Positions 10,089-47,688 of a stretch of DNA of 47,688 nucleotides are shown in pieces. The stretch's first letter is position 1; every line of letters begins with the position of its first letter. Source of the stretch: Minisyncoccia bacterium. Its GTDB lineage: Bacteria > Patescibacteriota > Minisyncoccia > SW-4-49-11. The DNA lies in NCBI GenBank assembly GCA_044341565.1, contig JBIIRM010000008.1, forward strand, positions 1 through 47,688, given 5' to 3'. Below the pieces are notes generated by a model that made no database searches, was not told where the DNA came from, and worked only from the letters and a program-made list of their open reading frames with translations. A program made the position numbers and the translations under genes.

Positions 10089-10410
10089 CCAAGGAGAATG
10101 GTAATCGCGCATATCCATATATATGGTGAGTGAGGAAAGTCTGGACACCTATTACTTTGTAATAAATGATAGTGGGTAATACCCACCATTGAGCTTGCTC
10201 AATCGGGATAGTATCGCAGAAACAAGACATTTGAGTATATCTCATCTAAGGTGAAAAGAGATAAACCCTATCAGGTGCAAGGCCGTGCTTTTCTGTATTG
10301 AAAAGAGTGCCGCCAAGAATATGCTGGTAACAGTATATCAAGATAAATGATTACCTATGTATATTTGCTTGCAAGTATGCATAACAGAATCCAGCTTATA
10401 TTCTTCTTGG
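10089..10410 (+). ncRNA. rnpB: RNase P RNA (bacterial type)
   Basis: The 390-nt gap is ORF-free. It contains GAGGAAAGTCTGGACACC (P4 5' strand, cf. consensus AGGAAAGUCCGGGCUCC) and ACAGAATCCAGCTTA (cf. ACAGAAnCCGGCUUA). AAGGTGAAAAGAG and GAAAAGAGTGCCGCC resemble the P10-12 elements. The 5' CCAAGGAGAAT pairs with the 3' ATTCTTCTTGG as P1. Confidence 0.75.
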
Positions 10411-10435
10411 ATAATTCTATAAACAATTACTATAT

Positions 10436-17453: not shown

Positions 17454-17956
17454 TTTCCACCCCTTTCCCTGCTACCCCTCAATTTATCTCCCGTAGGGAG
17501 AGAGGGGAATTAGCTAAGTCCACACCCGTCGACTTTGTCGACACCCTCGCCGGCGAGGCCTGCCTGCGGTAGGCAGGGACAGTTTTATTGTCCTCCCTTG
17601 GGGGAGCTTTGGTTCCTCCTATATTTGTTTAGGAGGGGGTGCCCGTAATAGACTGAAGGTCTGGGAAAGGGGTCGGGAAAACAGAAGTTTTCCCGTGGAG
17701 GAAGGTTGGGAAACCGTGAGGTTTCACAGGAGCAAATCCCATTTGCGACGGGGGAGGGAGGATAGAGTTTAAGTTTGTATTTTATCCACCCCGTCCAGCA
17801 AAGCTGTCCACCCCTCAAGAGGGGAATATATACAATGTACTGTCCTAAAAATTCCCCTCATGGGTTGTGAGTAGATAGGAGTCAGTATATAACAAAGTGC
17901 TTTGTCCGAAAAATTCCCCTCTTGAGGGGTGCCGTCGCTAGACGGCGGGGTGGAAA
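17454..17956. repeat. GC-rich hairpin-module element, copy A (largest)
   Basis: A ~500-nt G/C-rich island in AT-rich DNA packed with perfect short palindromes: GTCGACtttGTCGAC, CTCGCCGGCGAG, GCCTGCCTGCGGTAGGCAGGG, GGACAgttttatTGTCC, CCTCCCttGGGGGAG, CCTCCTatatttgtttAGGAGG, GGGAAAACagaaGTTTTCCC, CCCCTCaagaGGGG (twice), CGCCGTCgctaGACGGCG. Its core (17663-17755) is shared with copies B and C. The termini TTTCCACCCC (17454-63) and GGGGTGGAAA (17947-56) are inverted. Confidence 0.55.
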
Positions 17957-17959
17957 GTA

Positions 17960-18913
17960 TTACAATAACTCTCTATTCACAAAATACACCCCTGCATATC
18001 CATTCGCAAAGCTATCAGCAGTAATAGTATTTTTCCCCTCTACAGTTAATTCTTTGACCGCAATATTACCTATTTTTGTCCCAATAATCAGATTGTGACT
18101 GACAGAATCTAATTGCCAATATCCTGGCTTAAGTTTAATATCAGATATATGCTCAAGATCTAATCTATCCAATACTACTTTTTTGTCCGTATTGAGATAG
18201 GTATATACTTGTGGCCAAATAGTATAAGCTCTATAGGCATTATTAATGTCCTCGGCTGATTGACTCTCCCAATCAATAAGCCCATCCATTTTTTGAACCA
18301 TTTTCACAAAACTAGCTTTAGCATCATCTTGAACCCAGGGAGTAATTTCTCCATTCATAAAAGGAATAAGATTTTGTCTCAATATATCAGCCGCAACAGT
18401 GATAATTTTTGCCTCAAGTTCAATATAGGTATCGGTAGGAGATATAGTGATTTCCTCTTGAGCAATAATAGGTCCATGATCCATCAAATGATCAATTTCC
18501 ATCAAACTAACAGCAGTACTCTTGTCTCCATTACGGAGGCTCGCCTGTATAGGAGATGGCCCACGATACTGAGGTAGTCTTGAAGGATGAATATTCAACA
18601 CTCGATGAGGCATAATATCTAATATAGCTTGCGGAATAATTTTACCATAGGCAATAATTAGCCAAATATCAGCAGATAATCCTCGCAATAATTCACTAGT
18701 CTCAGGAGCTTTGAGAGAATGAGGACTATACACGGGAATAGAATGACTTTCCCCAAATACTTTGAGAGGACTAGGAGTTAATATTCTTTTACGCCCCTGC
18801 GGAGTATCAGGAGTAGTAATAATAGCCACAATATCAGCCCAATCGAGTAGAGACTCAGCAATAGCAACCGTAAGCTGAGGAGTACCCCAAACTACAATAC
18901 GGGGTTTAGACAT
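17960..18913 (-). CDS. fmt: methionyl-tRNA formyltransferase
   Basis: Its N-terminus RIVVWGTPQLTVAIAESLL...IITTPDTPQGRK matches the Fmt formyltransferase domain, followed by the C-terminal domain. The ATG at 18913 overlaps the def stop in an ATGTCTAA arrangement (8-nt overlap). The ORF-track start at 18925 is a GTG. Confidence 0.9.
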   Translation of the reverse strand: MSKPRIVVWGTPQLTVAIAESLLDWADIVAIITTPDTPQGRKRILTPSPLKVFGESHSIPVYSPHSLKAPETSELLRGLSADIWLIIAYGKIIPQAILDIMPHRVLNIHPSRLPQYRGPSPIQASLRNGDKSTAVSLMEIDHLMDHGPIIAQEEITISPTDTYIELEAKIITVAADILRQNLIPFMNGEITPWVQDDAKASFVKMVQKMDGLIDWESQSAEDINNAYRAYTIWPQVYTYLNTDKKVVLDRLDLEHISDIKLKPGYWQLDSVSHNLIIGTKIGNIAVKELTVEGKNTITADSFANGYAGVYFVNRELL

Positions 18914-33871: not shown

Positions 33872-34711
33872 ATGAAATTAATCATATCTACAGCATTTGG
33901 AATTGTCTTTGCACTAGTATTCTTTAGTAATTCTAATATAACACTTGCTCAATGTGGAAGTGGTCCAAGCTGTACAGGGAATTTTGTTTGTGTGAACGCA
34001 GATGGTACTCCTAAATGTTTGCTAAATCAGGTTAGTAATAATGGTTTATGTGAGGGCGACTCTTCTGTGAAATGTTCAGCAAATCAAGCTTGTATTCAAA
34101 ATAATGCAACAGAAATTGTATGTGCCCCTTTAGCGGGATCATCAGCTAATACAAATTTACCAGGTTCTGGAAGTACAACAACTTGTCCAACCTGTAAATC
34201 TGGTGAAACATGTATTAAGAGTGCAGCAGGACCACTCGTATGTAGATCCGCCGCTACAAATTGTACTCCTGCTTGTACAACAGGTAAGGTGTGTGTTAAA
34301 GCAACGCCAACAGCAACTACTGGAACTTGTGTAGATAATGCGCCTACTCAAGCTGCTGGAGGAGCTGGTGGTAATGGTGCTGGAGGGAATGGATCTTCAG
34401 GAGGAAGTGGTGGTGGCTTATTAGAAGGTCTCAATGCTTTTGGTAGTGCAGATTCTGGACTTAATACAGAGGGAACTCTCATTGGGTTTATTTCTAATAT
34501 TATTCGTTGGATATTAGGACTTCTTGGAACTGTGTTCTTTGTAATCATAGTTTTACAAGGGTATCTTTATATGACATCTTCAGGAGATGCGAGTAAAACA
34601 GCAGCAGCTACGGGGGCTATTACTAATGCAGTAATAGGACTACTGATTATTATGGGAGCTTTCCTCATTACTAATTTTGTGACAAGTGGTTTGATTGCCG
34701 CTGGGTCTTAA
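33872..34711 (+). CDS. Cys-rich/Gly-rich secreted protein with C-terminal VirB2/TrbC-like pilin hairpin
   Basis: Signal peptide, then Cys-rich repeats (C...C.....C), then a G/A/N-rich linker. The C-terminus IIRWILGLLGTVFFVIIVLQGYLYMTSSGDASKTAAATGAITNAVIGLLIIMGAFLI is shared with the paralogs. Confidence 0.65.
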   Translation: MKLIISTAFGIVFALVFFSNSNITLAQCGSGPSCTGNFVCVNADGTPKCLLNQVSNNGLCEGDSSVKCSANQACIQNNATEIVCAPLAGSSANTNLPGSGSTTTCPTCKSGETCIKSAAGPLVCRSAATNCTPACTTGKVCVKATPTATTGTCVDNAPTQAAGGAGGNGAGGNGSSGGSGGGLLEGLNAFGSADSGLNTEGTLIGFISNIIRWILGLLGTVFFVIIVLQGYLYMTSSGDASKTAAATGAITNAVIGLLIIMGAFLITNFVTSGLIAAGS

Positions 34712-34721
34712 TATCTTATAT

Positions 34722-35069
34722 ATGATAGAAGCATTTATATCCAATTTCATCATAGTAACAGCTAAAGCCCAGGAGACATCGCCTCCTCCTATATTAGCTA
34801 TACCTACAGGAACAGGAGTGGGGGAGCAAGGAGATCTGTTTACTTTTGTGTCAGCTATTGTGCAATGGGGATTGGGATTAATAGGGATAGTATTATTTGT
34901 ACTTATACTCTTTTCTGGATTCCAATATGCAACAGCAGGGGGCGACTCTAAAAAAACTGAAGAAGCTATTAGTAGAATTACTTCTGCAGTAATCGGAGTA
35001 TTCATTGTAGGGGTGGCTTTTATACTATCCAATGCAGTATTAGGATTTGTTTTTAGTCTAGGATCTTAA
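34722..35069 (+). CDS. small VirB2/TrbC-like pilin paralog
   Basis: Signal peptide MIEAFISNFIIVTAKAQE. ...IVQWGLGLIGIVLFVLILFSGFQYATAGGDSKKTEEAISRITSAVIGVFIVGVAF. Confidence 0.65.
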   Translation: MIEAFISNFIIVTAKAQETSPPPILAIPTGTGVGEQGDLFTFVSAIVQWGLGLIGIVLFVLILFSGFQYATAGGDSKKTEEAISRITSAVIGVFIVGVAFILSNAVLGFVFSLGS

Positions 35070-35097
35070 TATACTGACTTATCCACAATAGTATCAC

Positions 35098-35126
35098 TTG
35101 CATAGTAATATAAGATATGATAGTAT
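35098..35126 (+). promoter_or_regulatory. sigma70-like promoter (TTGCAT - 17 - TAGTAT) for the pilin gene at 35170
   Basis: TTGCAT at 35098-103, a 17-nt spacer, and TAGTAT at 35121-26. Confidence 0.35.
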
Positions 35127-35169
35127 AAAAACATAGAACATATTATTCAATAATTATTAAGATATTCTT

Positions 35170-35553
35170 ATGAATACTTCCCAGATAAAATCAATAGCAA
35201 CAAGAGCATTATTACCTGTATTAGTATTAGCTCCTACTTTAGCTGGAGCTGCAACTCCCATAAAAGATACTAGAGTCATAGGTGAAATACCTCAAGTAGC
35301 TGGTACTAATCAATCTACTGACCTTGTGGCTACAGTACAAGTGGTTATTCAATGGGCATTAGGATTTATCGGAATTGTAATATTCATTATTTTCTTATTT
35401 GCAGGATTTGAATATGCAACAGCAGGAGGAGATGAAGGAAAAGCAAAAACTGCACAGTCTCGAATGATTAACGCGGTAATTGGACTTATTATTATATTCT
35501 TTGCCTTTGTAGCTTCAAATGCAATATTGTCATTCGTATTCCCAGGAAATTAA
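35170..35553 (+). CDS. small VirB2/TrbC-like pilin paralog
   Basis: Signal peptide. ...VIQWALGFIGIVIFIIFLFAGFEYATAGGDEGKAKTAQSRMINAVIGLIIIFFAF. Confidence 0.7.
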   Translation: MNTSQIKSIATRALLPVLVLAPTLAGAATPIKDTRVIGEIPQVAGTNQSTDLVATVQVVIQWALGFIGIVIFIIFLFAGFEYATAGGDEGKAKTAQSRMINAVIGLIIIFFAFVASNAILSFVFPGN

Positions 35554-35574
35554 TCAAATTGATAGATACTATGA

Positions 35575-35611
35575 AACAATAAAAAGGGATTATATCCCTT
35601 TTTATTGTTTA
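35575..35611. terminator. perfect 16-bp palindrome (AAACAATAAAAAGGGA ttata TCCCTTTTTATTGTTT), likely a bidirectional terminator
   Basis: Exact inverted repeat with a 5-nt loop, 22 nt after the stop of the 35170 pilin gene. Confidence 0.55.
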
Positions 35612-35641
35612 GAGAATACATATTCAAATAGTATAATCTTC

Positions 35642-35670
35642 TTGTCAGATAATAGAATACTTGATATACT
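35642..35670 (+). promoter_or_regulatory. sigma70-like promoter (TTGTCA - 17 - TATACT) for the pilin gene at 35698
   Basis: TTGTCA at 35642-47, a 17-nt spacer, and TATACT at 35665-70. Confidence 0.35.
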
Positions 35671-35697
35671 TGTAATATATAGAATAGTAAAATAGAT

Positions 35698-36114
35698 ATG
35701 AGAGTCTTATTGATTATAATAGCTTTATTGATGGGGGTATTTGTATTAAGTTCTAATATATCTCTAGCTCAAAGAGCCCCTGATGCCACTCTCCCTGGTC
35801 CAGGAACAATCCCAATTAATACCGGAATAGCTGAGGGACCAAGCTTGATAGAAACAGTGTCTATTATTATAAGGTGGATATTAGGATTTATTGGAATTAT
35901 AATATTTATTATATTCCTATATGCAGGATTTGAATATGCAACAGCAGGAGGGGATGAGAAGCAGGCTGAATCAGCTCAAAAAAGAATGGTAAATGCAATC
36001 ATAGGACTGATTATTATATTCTTTGCATTTGTATTGTCGAATGCAGTATTAAGCTTTGTATTTCCTCCAGACGATACAGTAGATGATCCTAATATGCCAT
36101 TAAATGTAAATTAG
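35698..36114 (+). CDS. small VirB2/TrbC-like pilin paralog
   Basis: ...IIRWILGFIGIIIFIIFLYAGFEYATAGGDEKQAESAQKRMVNAIIGLIIIFFAF. Closest paralog of 35170. Confidence 0.7.
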   Translation: MRVLLIIIALLMGVFVLSSNISLAQRAPDATLPGPGTIPINTGIAEGPSLIETVSIIIRWILGFIGIIIFIIFLYAGFEYATAGGDEKQAESAQKRMVNAIIGLIIIFFAFVLSNAVLSFVFPPDDTVDDPNMPLNVN

Positions 36115-36115
36115 T

Positions 36116-36556
36116 ATGAAATATCTATCAATAGTAATAATTGCAATAATGATACTAATGAGTAATCCTTTTATTAGCTTTGCAGGTACCCCATCAGGGG
36201 GAGGAACTACTCCAGCTACGGGTGGTACTCCATCAGGGGGAGGAACTACTCCAGCTACGGGTGGTACTCCCACAACCCCAACTGACAATACTTCTGCTCA
36301 AAGTGTAGGATTTGTGAATCCAATTCGATTTAATTCTATCCCTGAGCTTATAGCAGGTATTATCAATGCTCTCTTGGGTATACTCGGAGCTATTACTGTG
36401 GCAATATTAGTGATGTCAGGATTTAAATATATGACAGCTTCTAATCCAGGAGCAGTAGGGCAAGCTTTAGATGGTATTAGGAATGCAATTGTAGGACTTA
36501 TGATTATTATGGGGGCTTTTCTCATCACACAATATATTATATCTGCTTTGGTGTAA
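36116..36556 (+). CDS. small VirB2/TrbC-like pilin paralog with exact tandem 13-aa repeat in the linker
   Basis: The ATG sits 1 nt after the previous stop. GTPSGGGTTPATG is repeated, encoded by an exact 39-bp tandem duplication (36191-36229 = 36230-36268). The C-terminus is GIINALLGILGAITVAILVMSGFKYMTASNPGAVGQALDGIRNAIVGLMIIMGAFLI. Confidence 0.7.
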   Translation: MKYLSIVIIAIMILMSNPFISFAGTPSGGGTTPATGGTPSGGGTTPATGGTPTTPTDNTSAQSVGFVNPIRFNSIPELIAGIINALLGILGAITVAILVMSGFKYMTASNPGAVGQALDGIRNAIVGLMIIMGAFLITQYIISALV

Positions 36557-37346: not shown

Positions 37347-37377
37347 TATATATAGCATATTTTAGGTAAAATGTCAA
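37347..37377 (-). promoter_or_regulatory. sigma70-like promoter on the minus strand (TTGACA - 17 - TATATA)
   Basis: Reverse complement of 37347-37377 reads TTGACAttttacctaaaatatgcTATATA, ~20 nt upstream of the start at 37323. Confidence 0.45.
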
Positions 37378-37389
37378 TATTTATAGACA

Positions 37390-37417
37390 ATAAAAAAGCC
37401 GTGACATTGTCACGGCT
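37390..37417 (-). terminator. rho-independent terminator (AGCCGTGACA tt GTCACGGCT + T-run on the minus strand)
   Basis: GC-rich 9-bp stem followed by TTTTTT on the minus strand, 18 nt past the 3' end of the SPFH gene. Confidence 0.6.
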
Positions 37418-38460: not shown

Positions 38461-38578
38461 TTTGTGAATGAACGAGGGACTTCTTATTCATAACACAAAA
38501 TCATAAATTTGTCAACTCATAATAACAGGTGTATATACATAAAATTATTCCGACTCAGGTCAATGAGTACTTATAATG

Positions 38579-38775
38579 TCCTCCCTTGGGGGAGGTGGGG
38601 AAAGGGGTCGGGAAAACGAGAGGTTTCACAGGAGCAAATTTTATTTGCGACGGAGGAGGATAATTCAAAAAGTCCACACCCACCGCTAACGCGGTACCCC
38701 CTCGCCAGCGAGTGACAGATTTAATATCCTCCCCCGGGGGAGGATAAAATAGTACAGGCGACTGAAAGGTCGCCC
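38579..38775. repeat. GC-rich hairpin-module element, copy B
   Basis: CCTCCCttGGGGGAGG, then a core (38597-38660: GGGGAAAGGGGTCGGGAAAACGAGAGGTTTCACAGGAGCAAATtttATTTGCGACGGAGGA) that is a deletion variant of copy A's core. Then AGTCCACACCC, CCCTCGCCAGCGAG, CCTCCCCCGGGGGAGG, GGCGACtgaaagGTCGCC. Confidence 0.5.
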
Positions 38776-42099: not shown

Positions 42100-42122
42100 G
42101 GTATATACTCACTATAGGTAAT

Positions 42123-42216
42123 CCTCCTCCGTTCCTCCTATATATAATAGGAGGAACACCTCCCCCCAAGGGAGGACAGAAATTTTGTCCCTCGCCAGCG
42201 AGGGACAATAATACGT
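42123..42216. repeat. GC-rich hairpin-module cluster, copy D (hairpin modules only, no long core)
   Basis: TTCCTCCTatatataatAGGAGGAA, CCTCCCcccaaGGGAGG, GGACAgaaattttGTCC, GTCCCTCGCCAGCGAGGGAC. These are the same modules as copy A but in a different order. Confidence 0.45.
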
Positions 42217-46308: not shown

Positions 46309-46563
46309 TCAGTCAGGCTCATAGAATGCACTGGAGTAGGGGAGGGCTTCAGTAAGGTTGAATGCCTCTTTTCGAGACATGGAGTTCAATTGCCGTGTGC
46401 GACAACAGCTACAGAATCTTCCATTTTGTTCGAATACCCGCACTTCTCCATGAACTCGAATGTGGATATCTGCGCCTACCCAGCGTGAGACTTGATTTGT
46501 GCAATTAGGCGTTGCACATGGGGCATTGAGTACATAATCAAGAATCCGATCAAGAAATGACAT
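46309..46563 (-). CDS. small Cys-rich (zinc-ribbon-like) hypothetical protein
   Basis: 84 aa; C..PNC ... C.CC cysteine clusters. It is GC-richer than its surroundings. A plausible minus-strand promoter (TTGACA-17-TATGGT) lies at ~46585-46613. Confidence 0.45.
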   Translation of the reverse strand: MSFLDRILDYVLNAPCATPNCTNQVSRWVGADIHIRVHGEVRVFEQNGRFCSCCRTRQLNSMSRKEAFNLTEALPYSSAFYEPD

Positions 46564-46635
46564 GACAGAAAGTCGAGTTTACAAAAATAACCATACCATA
46601 TTTTTGCAAAAATGTCAATATGTATAAACAATTTA

Positions 46636-46890
46636 TTATTTTGTATATATAAATCTCTGGATAGCAAGAGTCGACCAAAGTATAACTGATATCACGGTCA
46701 CAGCAGTAGATAACCAAAGTTCGAGAGAAGCAAAAGATAAACCAATTGCAGTTAAAGACAGAGCATAAGGAATAGAAGTCCAATAGCGAACTGGTCCTAT
46801 TTTGGTCTTAAAGCCCAATACAACCTGAGGTATCAGAGATAGGGAAATAATAATGCTCGCAATAGTAATAACAATATCTTGTATATTCAT
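46636..46890 (-). CDS. SemiSWEET-like PQ-loop sugar transporter (3-TM, 84 aa)
   Basis: Three hydrophobic helices. TM1 ends in LSLIPQVVLGFKTK (the PQ-loop motif), comparable to bacterial SemiSWEETs (..FLPQV....TK). Confidence 0.6.
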   Translation of the reverse strand: MNIQDIVITIASIIISLSLIPQVVLGFKTKIGPVRYWTSIPYALSLTAIGLSFASLELWLSTAVTVISVILWSTLAIQRFIYTK

Positions 46891-46974
46891 AAAATAATTT
46901 AGTATATATGTATAGTAAACCGATATATAACTCTAGTCAATAAATCAAATATCTGATAAAATAATCAAGATAAT

Positions 46975-47060
46975 GGAGAGTTCGCATAGTTGGTCTAGTG
47001 CGCACGCTTGGAAAGCGTGTATACCGCAAGGTATCAAGAGTTCGAATCTCTTACTCTCCG
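46975..47060 (+). tRNA. tRNA-Ser (anticodon GGA), class II with long variable arm
   Basis: Acceptor stem GGAGAGT/ACTCTCC. D-stem GCAT/GTGC. Anticodon stem CACGC/GCGTG with loop TTGGAAA (anticodon GGA). Variable arm ATACC-GCAA-GGTAT. T-stem AAGAG/CTCTT with loop TTCGAAT. Discriminator G. CCA is not encoded. Confidence 0.85.
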
Positions 47061-47068
47061 CAAAAATT

Positions 47069-47100
47069 AAAAATAGGGGTTTTTGCCCCTATTTTTAATT
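47069..47100 (+). terminator. hairpin terminator after tRNA-Ser (AAAAATAGGGG ttttg CCCCTATTTTT)
   Basis: 11-bp inverted repeat immediately downstream of the tRNA, followed by a T-rich tail. Confidence 0.5.
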
Positions 47101-47131
47101 TCCGTGAGTTAGTAAAGAGAAATTCGAACTC

Positions 47132-47303
47132 GGGAAGGGGTCGGGAAACGGAAGTTTCCTGTGGCGGAAGTAATCAATACCCCTAGATAGGAAGGCAATG
47201 AGGAGCTTGCTCCGAATGTCGGAAACCGTGGGTGTCCGAGATGGGGTTGTAGGGGTATTGAGGGAACTGAGGGGGTTTCAAAGAGCAAATCCCATTTGCG
47301 ACG
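47132..47303. repeat. GC-rich hairpin-module element, copy C (core split by ~100-nt insert)
   Basis: GGGAAGGGGTCGGGAAACGGAAGTTTCC ... GGTTTCAAAGAGCAAATCCCATTTGCGACGAG; these are the same core ends as copies A and B. Confidence 0.5.
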
Positions 47304-47324
47304 AGTTCGGAATCTCTTACTATC
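47303..47324 (+). repeat. direct repeat of the tRNA-Ser 3' end (att-like)
   Basis: GAGTTCGGAATCTCTTACTATC at 47303-47324 matches the tRNA T-arm/acceptor segment GAGTTCGAATCTCTTACTCTCC (47038-47059) at 20 of 21 aligned positions with one 1-nt indel. Confidence 0.55.
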
Positions 47325-47512
47325 TATATTCCGACACTCGGGAATAAATCCCTCGCTGCCTTCCTGCACGGGGGATTTTGCCTTCATACATACGATGTAT
47401 GAAATCCTGAAGGAGTTATTTAGATTCAAACTTCATTTTTAATTGGACTAAATAAATTTTAGTTGGTATTCTATTTATTAGGTGGTATATCAGTTAATCT
47501 AAAAATAATTTT

Positions 47513-47688
47513 ATGTTGAATATATTGTTTTTAATATTACCATTGGCGATAGTAGATAGCTTAAATCCCTTTACTATTGCAACACATGTTTTTTTATTAA
47601 CCACAAAGAATCCTTTGCCAAAGGCAATTTTTCATATTATTGGTATCTATTTAATGTATTTGATAGGTGGTATTTTAATATTTTTAGG
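47513..47688 (+). CDS. 5' part of a membrane protein gene (partial, runs off the window)
   Basis: The ATG at 47513 opens a frame to the window end: MLNILFLILPLAIVDSLNPFTIATHVFLLTTKNPLPKAIFHIIGIYLMYLIGGILIFL, which is strongly hydrophobic. Confidence 0.4.
   Translation, partial: MLNILFLILPLAIVDSLNPFTIATHVFLLTTKNPLPKAIFHIIGIYLMYLIGGILIFL

Follow-up and report, generated by a model that had tools for sequence, protein, structure and literature searches.

We analysed 47,688 nt of DNA from a Minisyncoccia bacterium (contig JBIIRM010000008.1 of assembly GCA_044341565.1, positions 1 to 47,688; hereafter the window), near the right end of which the 3′ end of the tRNA-Ser(GGA) gene is repeated as a direct copy. 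The locus is probably an accretion array of integrase-less cassettes that recombined into the 3′ end of the tRNA gene with the enzyme supplied in trans, a reading to which we assign a probability of about 0.6. Bacteria of the Candidate Phyla Radiation (CPR, Patescibacteria) have tiny genomes and few recognised mobile elements, and their acquisition of genes is poorly understood. Here a single tRNA gene acts as a reusable docking site at which close relatives gain and lose genes: strains 94-97% identical in neighbouring genes hold different sets of cassettes, with restriction-modification (R-M) systems, a transporter, an SfLAP membrane protein and orphan genes. Recombinase-less cassettes at tRNA-Ser thus provide a concrete and testable case of gene flux in CPR bacteria.

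The tRNA-Ser(GGA) gene is intact (46975-47061, plus strand; found by ARAGORN and, with 55.3 bits, by the Rfam tRNA model) and 99-100% identical in relatives; it is likely to be both the integration target and the proximal boundary of the array. The first direct copy of the repeat, D1 (47038-47059, plus strand; GAGTTCGAATCTCTTACTCTCC), lies inside the gene and covers 3 nt of the T-stem, the T-loop, the 3′ strand of the T-stem and the 3′ strand of the acceptor. The second, D2 (47303-47324, plus strand; GAGTTCGGAATCTCTTACTATC), agrees with D1 at 20 of 21 aligned positions, has a 1-nt insertion, and corresponds to homologous arms in relatives. A fuzzy search of the window for sites at an edit distance of 3 or less from the 22-mer returned, besides D1 itself, D2 alone, and composition-preserving shuffles gave a chance expectation of 0.01 such matches per window. 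The duplication had been reported in an earlier note on this DNA and is borne out by ARAGORN, Rfam, the fuzzy search and the shuffles. The same holds for the content of the enclosed ~245 nt: the interval between D1 and D2 measures 243 nt (47060-47302) and consists of a terminator-like hairpin, H, and a GC-rich element. D2 resembles an attR site, in that its 5′ part (GAGTTCG plus G) appears to be of the element type, with one extra T-loop nucleotide, and its 3′ part appears to be the displaced former end of the tRNA. Annotators should take the 22-mer for a piece of a tRNA rather than for a gene.

Three features had escaped the earlier note, namely, a copy of the tRNA 3′ end in inverted orientation, what is left of a second unit (47329-47431) and the identity of three assemblies. 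The inverted copy, or I arm (47107-47132, minus strand; AGTAAAGAGAAATTCGAACTCG, reverse complement CGAGTTCGAAT-TTCTCTTTACTAAC), is evident from sequence and fold and is found in occupied related loci. It pairs with 47302-47327 and thereby closes the GC-rich core in the minimum-energy fold of 47062-47400 (-128 kcal/mol, z = -5.2). Together, the tRNA end and the I arm form a long imperfect palindrome centred on the loop of hairpin H (self-BLAST match of 47038-47101 to 47064-47131). The local order is therefore D1 (within the tRNA), H, I arm, core, D2, a module that we call X, a truncated inverted arm and a gene of the SfLAP family. The region is identical in three independent assemblies of the source strain, so that the footprint is not an assembly artefact of one sample. 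Exact-protein look-ups for strain-level variants returned identical contigs only.

Related loci, denoted by L-numbers, were found via an AcrB-like gene that neighbours the tRNA and via exact-protein look-ups of AcrB homologues. The AcrB-like gene retrieves metagenome-assembled genomes of Paceibacteria/Parcubacteria (CPR), and the tRNA is syntenic with it in more than 20 related loci. Empty tRNA-Ser sites, which the earlier note had proposed to look for, are present in three of them (L007, L011 and L160). In L007 the tRNA trailer GCAAAATC runs directly into a convergent flank gene encoding 131 amino acids. The same flank gene is present in L008, L010, L025 and L110, which have inserts of ~200 nt to at least 4.8 kb, each ending in GAGTTTGTAATCTCTTACTCTCCGCAAAATC, and in these four loci the distal copy and the flank align colinearly with the tRNA end and the flank of L007. 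Occupied loci thus begin with an intact tRNA and close with a direct repeat made of its displaced 3′ fragment, and the empty site of relatives equals the tRNA end plus the distal flank. One to three extra direct copies of the tRNA end occur in 11 distinct related loci. The relatives accordingly display an insertion polymorphism and not the same second copy everywhere, the outcome that had been named as contrary to insertion. A regenerated tRNA with a displaced 3′ fragment is an established mark of integration into tRNA genes (PMC4383910, PMC9897764), and there is a precedent for an attB site of the T-loop class (PMC1762012).

The occupant of the site is mismatched with its host. The closest strain, L003, is 97% identical in AcrB and again 97% over the 60 nt preceding the tRNA; its occupant beside the tRNA is another one, of the module X type. 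In the clade-2 loci L041, L110 and L120 there is a unit that shares 91% identity with window positions 47062-47172, and AcrB identity to the window is ~72% at the protein and ~73% at the DNA level. Host relatedness does not predict the element type, a pattern that speaks for mobility and against decay on the spot. The 131-aa flank protein is 85-89% identical between clades in which AcrB is only 72% identical, an unusually strong conservation. The open reading frame (ORF) bounds the array distally in L155 (2036-2431), L025 (3560-3955), L110 (6954-7343) and L148 (8727-9122), and in the source genome it lies just past the end of the window. We considered this protein as an HUH enzyme of the IS200/RAYT type and rejected the idea, as it has no histidine and no Pfam or PDB match.

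Two types of distal junction can be distinguished. Type-1 junctions read ...GCGAC|GAGTTCG(N)AATCTC and always have one extra T-loop base; type-2 junctions, found in L148, L143, L155 and L005, read ...TCTGTGACC|GAATCTC. Homology with the tRNA therefore begins inside the T-loop and ends a few bases past the acceptor end, over 21-31 nt. In the distant locus L098, a type-1 unit sits at tRNA-Ser(CGA), which has a different T-stem and retains its own CCCTT, and the distal copy is a hybrid, of the element type up to AATCTC and of the local type beyond. This indicates that the arms belong to the element and that the crossover in L098 would have taken place 3′ of the T-stem.

Cassettes bracketed by direct copies range from 0.05 to 3.3 kb and contain nothing, SfLAP, an ABC (ATP-binding cassette) transporter, or hydrolase, helix-turn-helix (HTH) and NTPase genes. 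L110 carries a Type III R-M insert of at least 4.8 kb, the tRNA end of which is off the contig. The longest array, in L155, has alternating direct and inverted copies. In L155/L156, with AcrB 96% identical to that of the window, four direct copies are located at offsets 65 (the tRNA), 271, 2734 and 3570 and delimit three cassettes: the first is empty, the second has five genes (those for a hydrolase, an HTH protein and an NTPase, and two orphans) and the third has SfLAP alone. The 131-aa flank gene comes next. Four copies surround an ORF for a 260-aa membrane protein in L005, and three surround the ABC transporter in L025. The cargo of L120 comprises an HTH gene, a Dam-type methylase and a 264-aa ORF; further cargo includes orphan ORFs and an Mrr nuclease. 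Every occupied related locus carries an inverted arm, with the sole exception of the 55-nt insert of L143/L144. In cargo-bearing units the palindrome D-H...H′-I extends into inverted repeats of 230-250 nt. The GC-rich inverted repeats at 100-329 and 2391-2640 of L120 (reverse strand) are 100% identical and bracket its operon. Similar repeats bracket the R-M or transporter operons of L110 and L025, and in all three loci they continue outward into a terminator hairpin and copies of the tRNA end. No transposase is present in the repeat-bracketed operons of L120, L110 and L025.

In the window, the array reads as the tRNA, unit 1 (47062-47324), the 5′ part of an eroded older unit (47329-47431) and the SfLAP gene. 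Hairpin H (47064-47101, plus strand) has, in the predicted fold, an A/T-rich stem of 17 bp that is topped by GGGG/CCCC and precedes a T-run, and would suit a terminator of the tRNA; its palindrome was also picked up as microRNA-like hairpin matches. The GC-rich core (47132-47302, plus strand), the third of the copies described earlier (copy C), is composed of GGGAAGGGGTCG, hairpin 1, a nested insert, hairpin 2, hairpin 3 and CGAC. In relatives, the canonical core spans ~75 nt and has three conserved hairpins. Its covariation is weak, with two covarying pairs, both in hairpin 3, and none in the closing stem formed by the I arm and D2. The nested hairpin module (47173-47261, plus strand; stem ATCAATACCCCTA / TAGGGGTATTGA) carries part of module X in reverse, positions 5-51 of module X from L003 matching window positions 47259-47212 by BLAST, and core 2 of L025 has the same nested-module variant. 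Module X, which directly follows the tRNA in L003, L010 and L014, is represented in the window by a remnant (47329-47426, plus strand) that is 97% identical to positions 39-137 of the L003 module and forms the 5′ module of the older unit. Comparison with L003 and L155 suggests that the adjoining sequence TAGATTCAAAC (47421-47431, minus strand) is the truncated inverted arm of that unit, the core and direct arm of which are missing in comparison with L003, presumably by deletion. The history that fits the window best is one in which an array like that of L003 acquired unit 1 at the tRNA and parts of its older unit disappeared.

The start of the SfLAP-family gene (47513-47688, plus strand; Pfam SfLAP, E = 1e-7) is cut by the window end. 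Upstream of SfLAP, the sequence of L155 is nearly identical to window positions 47310-47530, and in L155/L156 the same SfLAP gene with the same upstream sequence makes up a one-gene cassette that a further copy of the tRNA end closes. Beyond the window, the gene order, SfLAP, the opposite-strand 131-aa ORF and GSHPx, is that of L155. Because both the upstream sequence and the gene order match L155, the array of the window most likely continues through SfLAP to a further direct copy of the tRNA end, ~0.6 kb beyond the window. The order predicted beyond 47688, as in L155, would be SfLAP, ...TATTTGCGAC|GAGTTTGGAATCTCTTACTCTC and the convergent 131-aa gene. It had been proposed that the repeats are the stump of a larger island reaching beyond the window; a continuation of the array via SfLAP is very probable, but the next 10 kb hold no integrase or phage genes. 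Independent assemblies of this strain break at the end of L001 (equivalent to window ~47228, in the GC-rich core) and at the end of the window, 47688, in the cassette array, which suggests that repeats or strain heterogeneity at this locus limit assembly of the lineage.

The reading that we prefer would involve the following steps. An incoming unit would bring along a copy of the tRNA 3′ end that begins in the T-loop and stops a few bases beyond the acceptor end. This copy would recombine with the tRNA gene, with a crossover between the T-loop and the acceptor end, and the unit would be spliced in. The copy brought by the unit would restore a working tRNA, and the old tRNA end would be pushed to the far side and stay there as a direct repeat. 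D2 would then be the distal junction of a small insertion that has no recombinase gene. Repeated events would stack units, with the newest nearest to the tRNA and the older ones eroded by deletions. The recombinase, of whatever nature, would act in trans, and the mobile intermediate might be a circle or a hairpin. For an excised circle, the predicted junction is ...GCGACGAGTTCG(N)|AATCTCTTACTCTCCGC, followed by hairpin H. Of the earlier claim that the repeats are the attL/attR signature of a tyrosine integrase, the insertion stands, supported by the empty sites, the colinearity and the arrays; a tyrosine integrase is unproven, none having been found in the window or around any of the relatives.

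Several observations weigh against this reading. Searches with phmmer using XerC and lambda Int yielded no tyrosine recombinase in 607 ORFs, taken from the window and from the first 21 related loci (listed for this search are L001-L014, L025, L040, L041, L098, L110 and L120). The Pfam annotation of the cargo and of the ±10-kb flanks of relatives contains no recombinase family; serine recombinases, DDE and HUH enzymes were checked via Pfam on selected ORFs and via precomputed annotations. An integrative element would be expected to have an integrase gene inside it, next to the att site, and no such gene is found here. The unit is absent from collections of phages, plasmids and viruses (known phages and plasmids searched by blastn, in distant mode). 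A classical double-stranded attP needs no inverted copy, yet nearly all occupied loci have one; ~245 bp is very small for a double-stranded circle; and the extra T-loop base in the direct arm of type-1 units is hard to reconcile with a crossover in that loop. Copies of the GC-rich core that lack tRNA-like arms are also present at other places in the genome. Finally, all data are metagenome assemblies, and L007 could represent a precise deletion between repeats and not a site that was never occupied.

Pattern scans of IMG/VR gave chance matches only, to opposite-strand tRNA-Ser genes of phages and to a coding region of a GC-rich phage. A metagenome scan with a pattern of 17 specified bases returned mostly noise from GC-rich contigs, the relevant hits being L025, L040, L041, L098, L110 and L120. 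With Rfam 15, only the tRNA and RNase P pass the gathering thresholds, and a permissive scan of 46900-47500 produced hairpin noise. Three other ideas were rejected. The unit is not a degenerate inverted tRNA gene, as ARAGORN finds none and only the T-arm and acceptor part match. The inverted arm is not a primer-binding site of a retroelement, as the complementarity enters the trailer of the gene and not a CCA end. Cut-and-paste at a restriction site (TTCGAA) does not apply, as the type-1 inverted arm spans the site rather than ending there.

The confidences that we attach to the different readings are separate and are not intended to sum to 1. A recombinase-free route and a folded-strand variant accept the same footprint and differ only in chemistry. 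It is possible, though rather unlikely, that no dedicated recombinase is involved and that, once DNA has been taken up, homologous recombination of the RecA type exchanges the cassettes. It would be anchored by the near-invariant tRNA gene together with conserved GC-rich modules or copies of the tRNA end, and the inverted copies and palindromes would be products of repair by fold-back or template switching, or of insertions that duplicate a long target. The lack of any recombinase in the searched loci agrees with this route, and the limits of the repeat (21-31 nt) would simply mark where homology stops. There are documented R-M units that have long inverted repeats or long target duplications and no mobility genes (PMC2853133). 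A pilin-like cluster of the type IV secretion kind is also encoded in the window. Moreover, the hairpin modules are nested and lie in both orientations, and other GC-rich clusters, without tRNA-like arms, are hot spots of insertion and deletion too. On the other hand, a homology of 20-30 nt is marginal for RecA. Homologous recombination would also leave unaccounted for the copy of the tRNA end on the incoming DNA, the restriction of the phenomenon to tRNA-Ser (nothing of the kind is seen at the tRNA-Thr locus of the same contigs) and the element-type arm, with its extra base, retained at tRNA-Ser(CGA) of a distant genome.

The GC-rich clusters bear on this question. Copies A (17662-17750) and B (38597-38651) of the core, like copies in L009 and L005, have no tRNA-like arms; such arms are confined to the tRNA-Ser locus in the window and in the 22-kb related loci. 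All GC-rich clusters of the window coincide with breaks in the alignments to relatives, which at these sites have other modules, nothing, or inserted genes. The positions of the clusters and the armless copies therefore imply that GC-rich modules are a wider feature of variable intergenic sites and do not integrate into tRNA genes per se. The proposal that the GC-rich elements are small non-autonomous elements mobilised in trans consequently fits the tRNA-linked unit but not copies A and B. Nested GC-rich hairpin clusters stand out in this genome of 33% GC at 17460-17975, 38551-38760 and 42120-42215, with sequences such as CCTCCCTTGGGGGAGG, CCTCCTATAT..AGGAGG and GGGACA..TGTCCC. In L006/L012 an ORF is inserted between fusA and rarA, and in L148/L149/L159 a Type III R-M system lies between rpsL and a Band-7 gene. 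The generality of such structures at tRNA ends was examined at the tRNA-Thr locus, which is clean of such palindromes in L007 and L110.

We consider it unlikely that the units recombine as folded single strands, in the manner of integron cassettes (attC x attI) or of phages exploiting Xer. In such a scheme, the inverted and direct arms would rebuild a duplex T-arm/acceptor, the GC-rich core would be a variable terminal loop, the T-arm would play the part of attI, and replication would resolve the junction. The topology is indeed that of an integron array: target, 3′ part of the site, cargo, inverted half-site, variable loop, 5′ part of the site, target. Predicted DNA folds of both element types and of distant lineages are multi-hairpin junctions closed by the arms. 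Type-1 stems keep an asymmetry, with the extra base in the direct arm only, but type-2 stems have no bulge. The cassettes lack recombinases and often hold a single gene (SfLAP) or none, and the 100%-identical palindromes of 230-250 nt would give a long single-strand stem that has the core and the cargo at opposite ends. In the SfLAP cassette, however, the cargo lies between the inverted arm and the core remnant and not upstream of the hairpin. No IntI-like or other tyrosine recombinase is found beside the platform, the arms differ from the GTTRRRY / RYYYAAC core sites, neither Rfam nor any other model gives a match, and changes in the arms are uncompensated between partners (variants GAGTTTG and TTCATAAT).

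A broader version of this idea, which we regard as doubtful, would be a CPR integron-like cassette system unrelated in sequence to integrons, in which the T-arm/acceptor end of tRNA-Ser is the fixed site and folded hairpins close the cassettes. A recombinase encoded elsewhere may then insert cassettes (defence systems, transporters) proximal to the tRNA, and GC-rich hairpin modules at the genome's other hot spots could be related to this machinery. If the hairpin architecture is functional, it would amount to a second, independent invention of the integron principle.

Very improbable, lastly, is that the inverted arm, core and direct arm form a structured RNA or a regulator in the tRNA 3′ trailer, the inverted arm being an anti-tRNA-3′-end sequence and the direct arm its competitor, and not a footprint of a mobile element: the predicted folding is strong (z = -5.2), the core keeps its three hairpins, in which two pairs covary and changes in stem length are compensated, and the unit is conserved above neighbouring coding DNA, but the block sits after a terminator-like hairpin, is absent in some relatives, replaced in the closest strain by unrelated modules and eroded by deletions in others, its closing stem shows no covariation, Rfam has no family that fits the block, and the colinearity of the distal copy into the original flank is not required of an RNA element.

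The side of the tRNA facing AcrB is also variable (window 46309-46890; L004 7157-9110). In the window it encodes a Cys-rich 84-aa ORF and an 84-aa membrane protein, in place of which L004 and L155 have a DNA methylase and other ORFs. The Cys-rich ORF had been called a zinc ribbon; the ORF is present but has no family match. The SemiSWEET gene proposed for this neighbourhood is unconfirmed, having only a PQ-loop match with E = 0.31. Elsewhere in the window, positions 10089-10414 encode a compact bacterial RNase P RNA of class A (140 bits) with shortened P12 and P3. A 40-nt repeat, 85% identical between 37352-37391 and 46593-46632, lies upstream of two unrelated minus-strand genes and holds a minus-strand promoter-like site, TTGACA-17-TATGGT, possibly a shared promoter or operator. 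The region 33872-36556 is an array of paralogous small genes with pilin-like C-termini of type IV secretion (Pfam T4SS_pilin), and 36185-36262 is a 39-nt tandem duplication in perfect register.

Among known systems, tRNA-targeted islands and prophages (Islander-type islands; mycobacteriophage Ms6 with its T-loop attB) share with the present locus a regenerated tRNA, a displaced 3′ fragment, reaching from the T-arm to beyond the acceptor end, as a direct repeat, empty sites in relatives, an insert of foreign composition and tandem accumulation (PMC4383910, PMC9897764, PMC1762012). The units described here differ in size, 0.05-3.3 kb (at least 4.8 kb in L110) against 5-100 kb for islands, in the lack of an integrase found in or near them, in the inverted att copy (except in L143/L144) and in the long inverted-repeat ends of cargo-bearing units. 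R-M units with long inverted repeats or target duplication (Furuta et al. 2010, PMC2853133) resemble the R-M operons of L110 and L120, with their C-protein-like HTH, 230-250-nt inverted repeats, no transposase and a polymorphic site. Unlike in those units, the repeats here pass outward into tRNA 3′-end copies, and the same ends carry an ABC transporter or nothing. Transposable elements of the miniature inverted-repeat kind (MITEs) and GC-rich hairpin elements of AT-rich genomes, such as the repetitive hairpin elements (RHEs) of sponge mitochondria (PMC2800124), are likewise small GC-rich intergenic hairpin modules, nested and in both orientations. The terminal inverted repeats, short target-site duplication and many dispersed copies with the same ends that define MITEs are not seen here: the tRNA-linked unit lacks a short target-site duplication, the repeat that flanks it measures 21-31 nt and matches the tRNA, and tRNA-like arms occur only at the tRNA-Ser locus.

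Integron cassettes with their attC sites, and clusters of attC sites lacking integron-integrases (CALINs), resemble the present arrays in being short, recombinase-less cassettes lined up at one platform, with empty and single-gene forms, each closed by an imperfect palindrome with a variable centre (DNA folds; arrays L155, L025 and L005) and with the crossover site split between neighbouring cassettes. Here, by contrast, the platform is a tRNA gene and not an attI site beside intI, the arms copy the tRNA 3′ end, and some cargo is multi-gene with its own regulators. In place of intI and attI, a small membrane protein, the Cys-rich ORF and the AcrB-like pump are encoded upstream of the tRNA. The arms, ...ATTCGAACTC and GAGTTCG(N)AATCTC, also depart from the attC core sites (R″ RYYYAAC, R′ GTTRRRY), the fourth base after GTT being C and not a purine. 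Cis-mobilizable elements (CIMEs) are decayed integrative and conjugative elements (ICEs) of several kilobases for which the cognate ICE is known; att-flanked and devoid of recombination modules, they reportedly accrete with ICEs in Streptococcus (Pavlovic 2004; Bellanger 2011). They too are non-autonomous DNA with attL/attR-type repeats at the 3′ end of a tRNA or another gene, and they accrete site-specifically with the integrase supplied in trans. The units described here are far smaller, have a conserved hairpin architecture and have no known autonomous partner. The locus is thus like tRNA-targeted islands and CIMEs in principle, and unlike them in being miniature, integrase-less, palindromic and arrayed, in a CPR bacterium.

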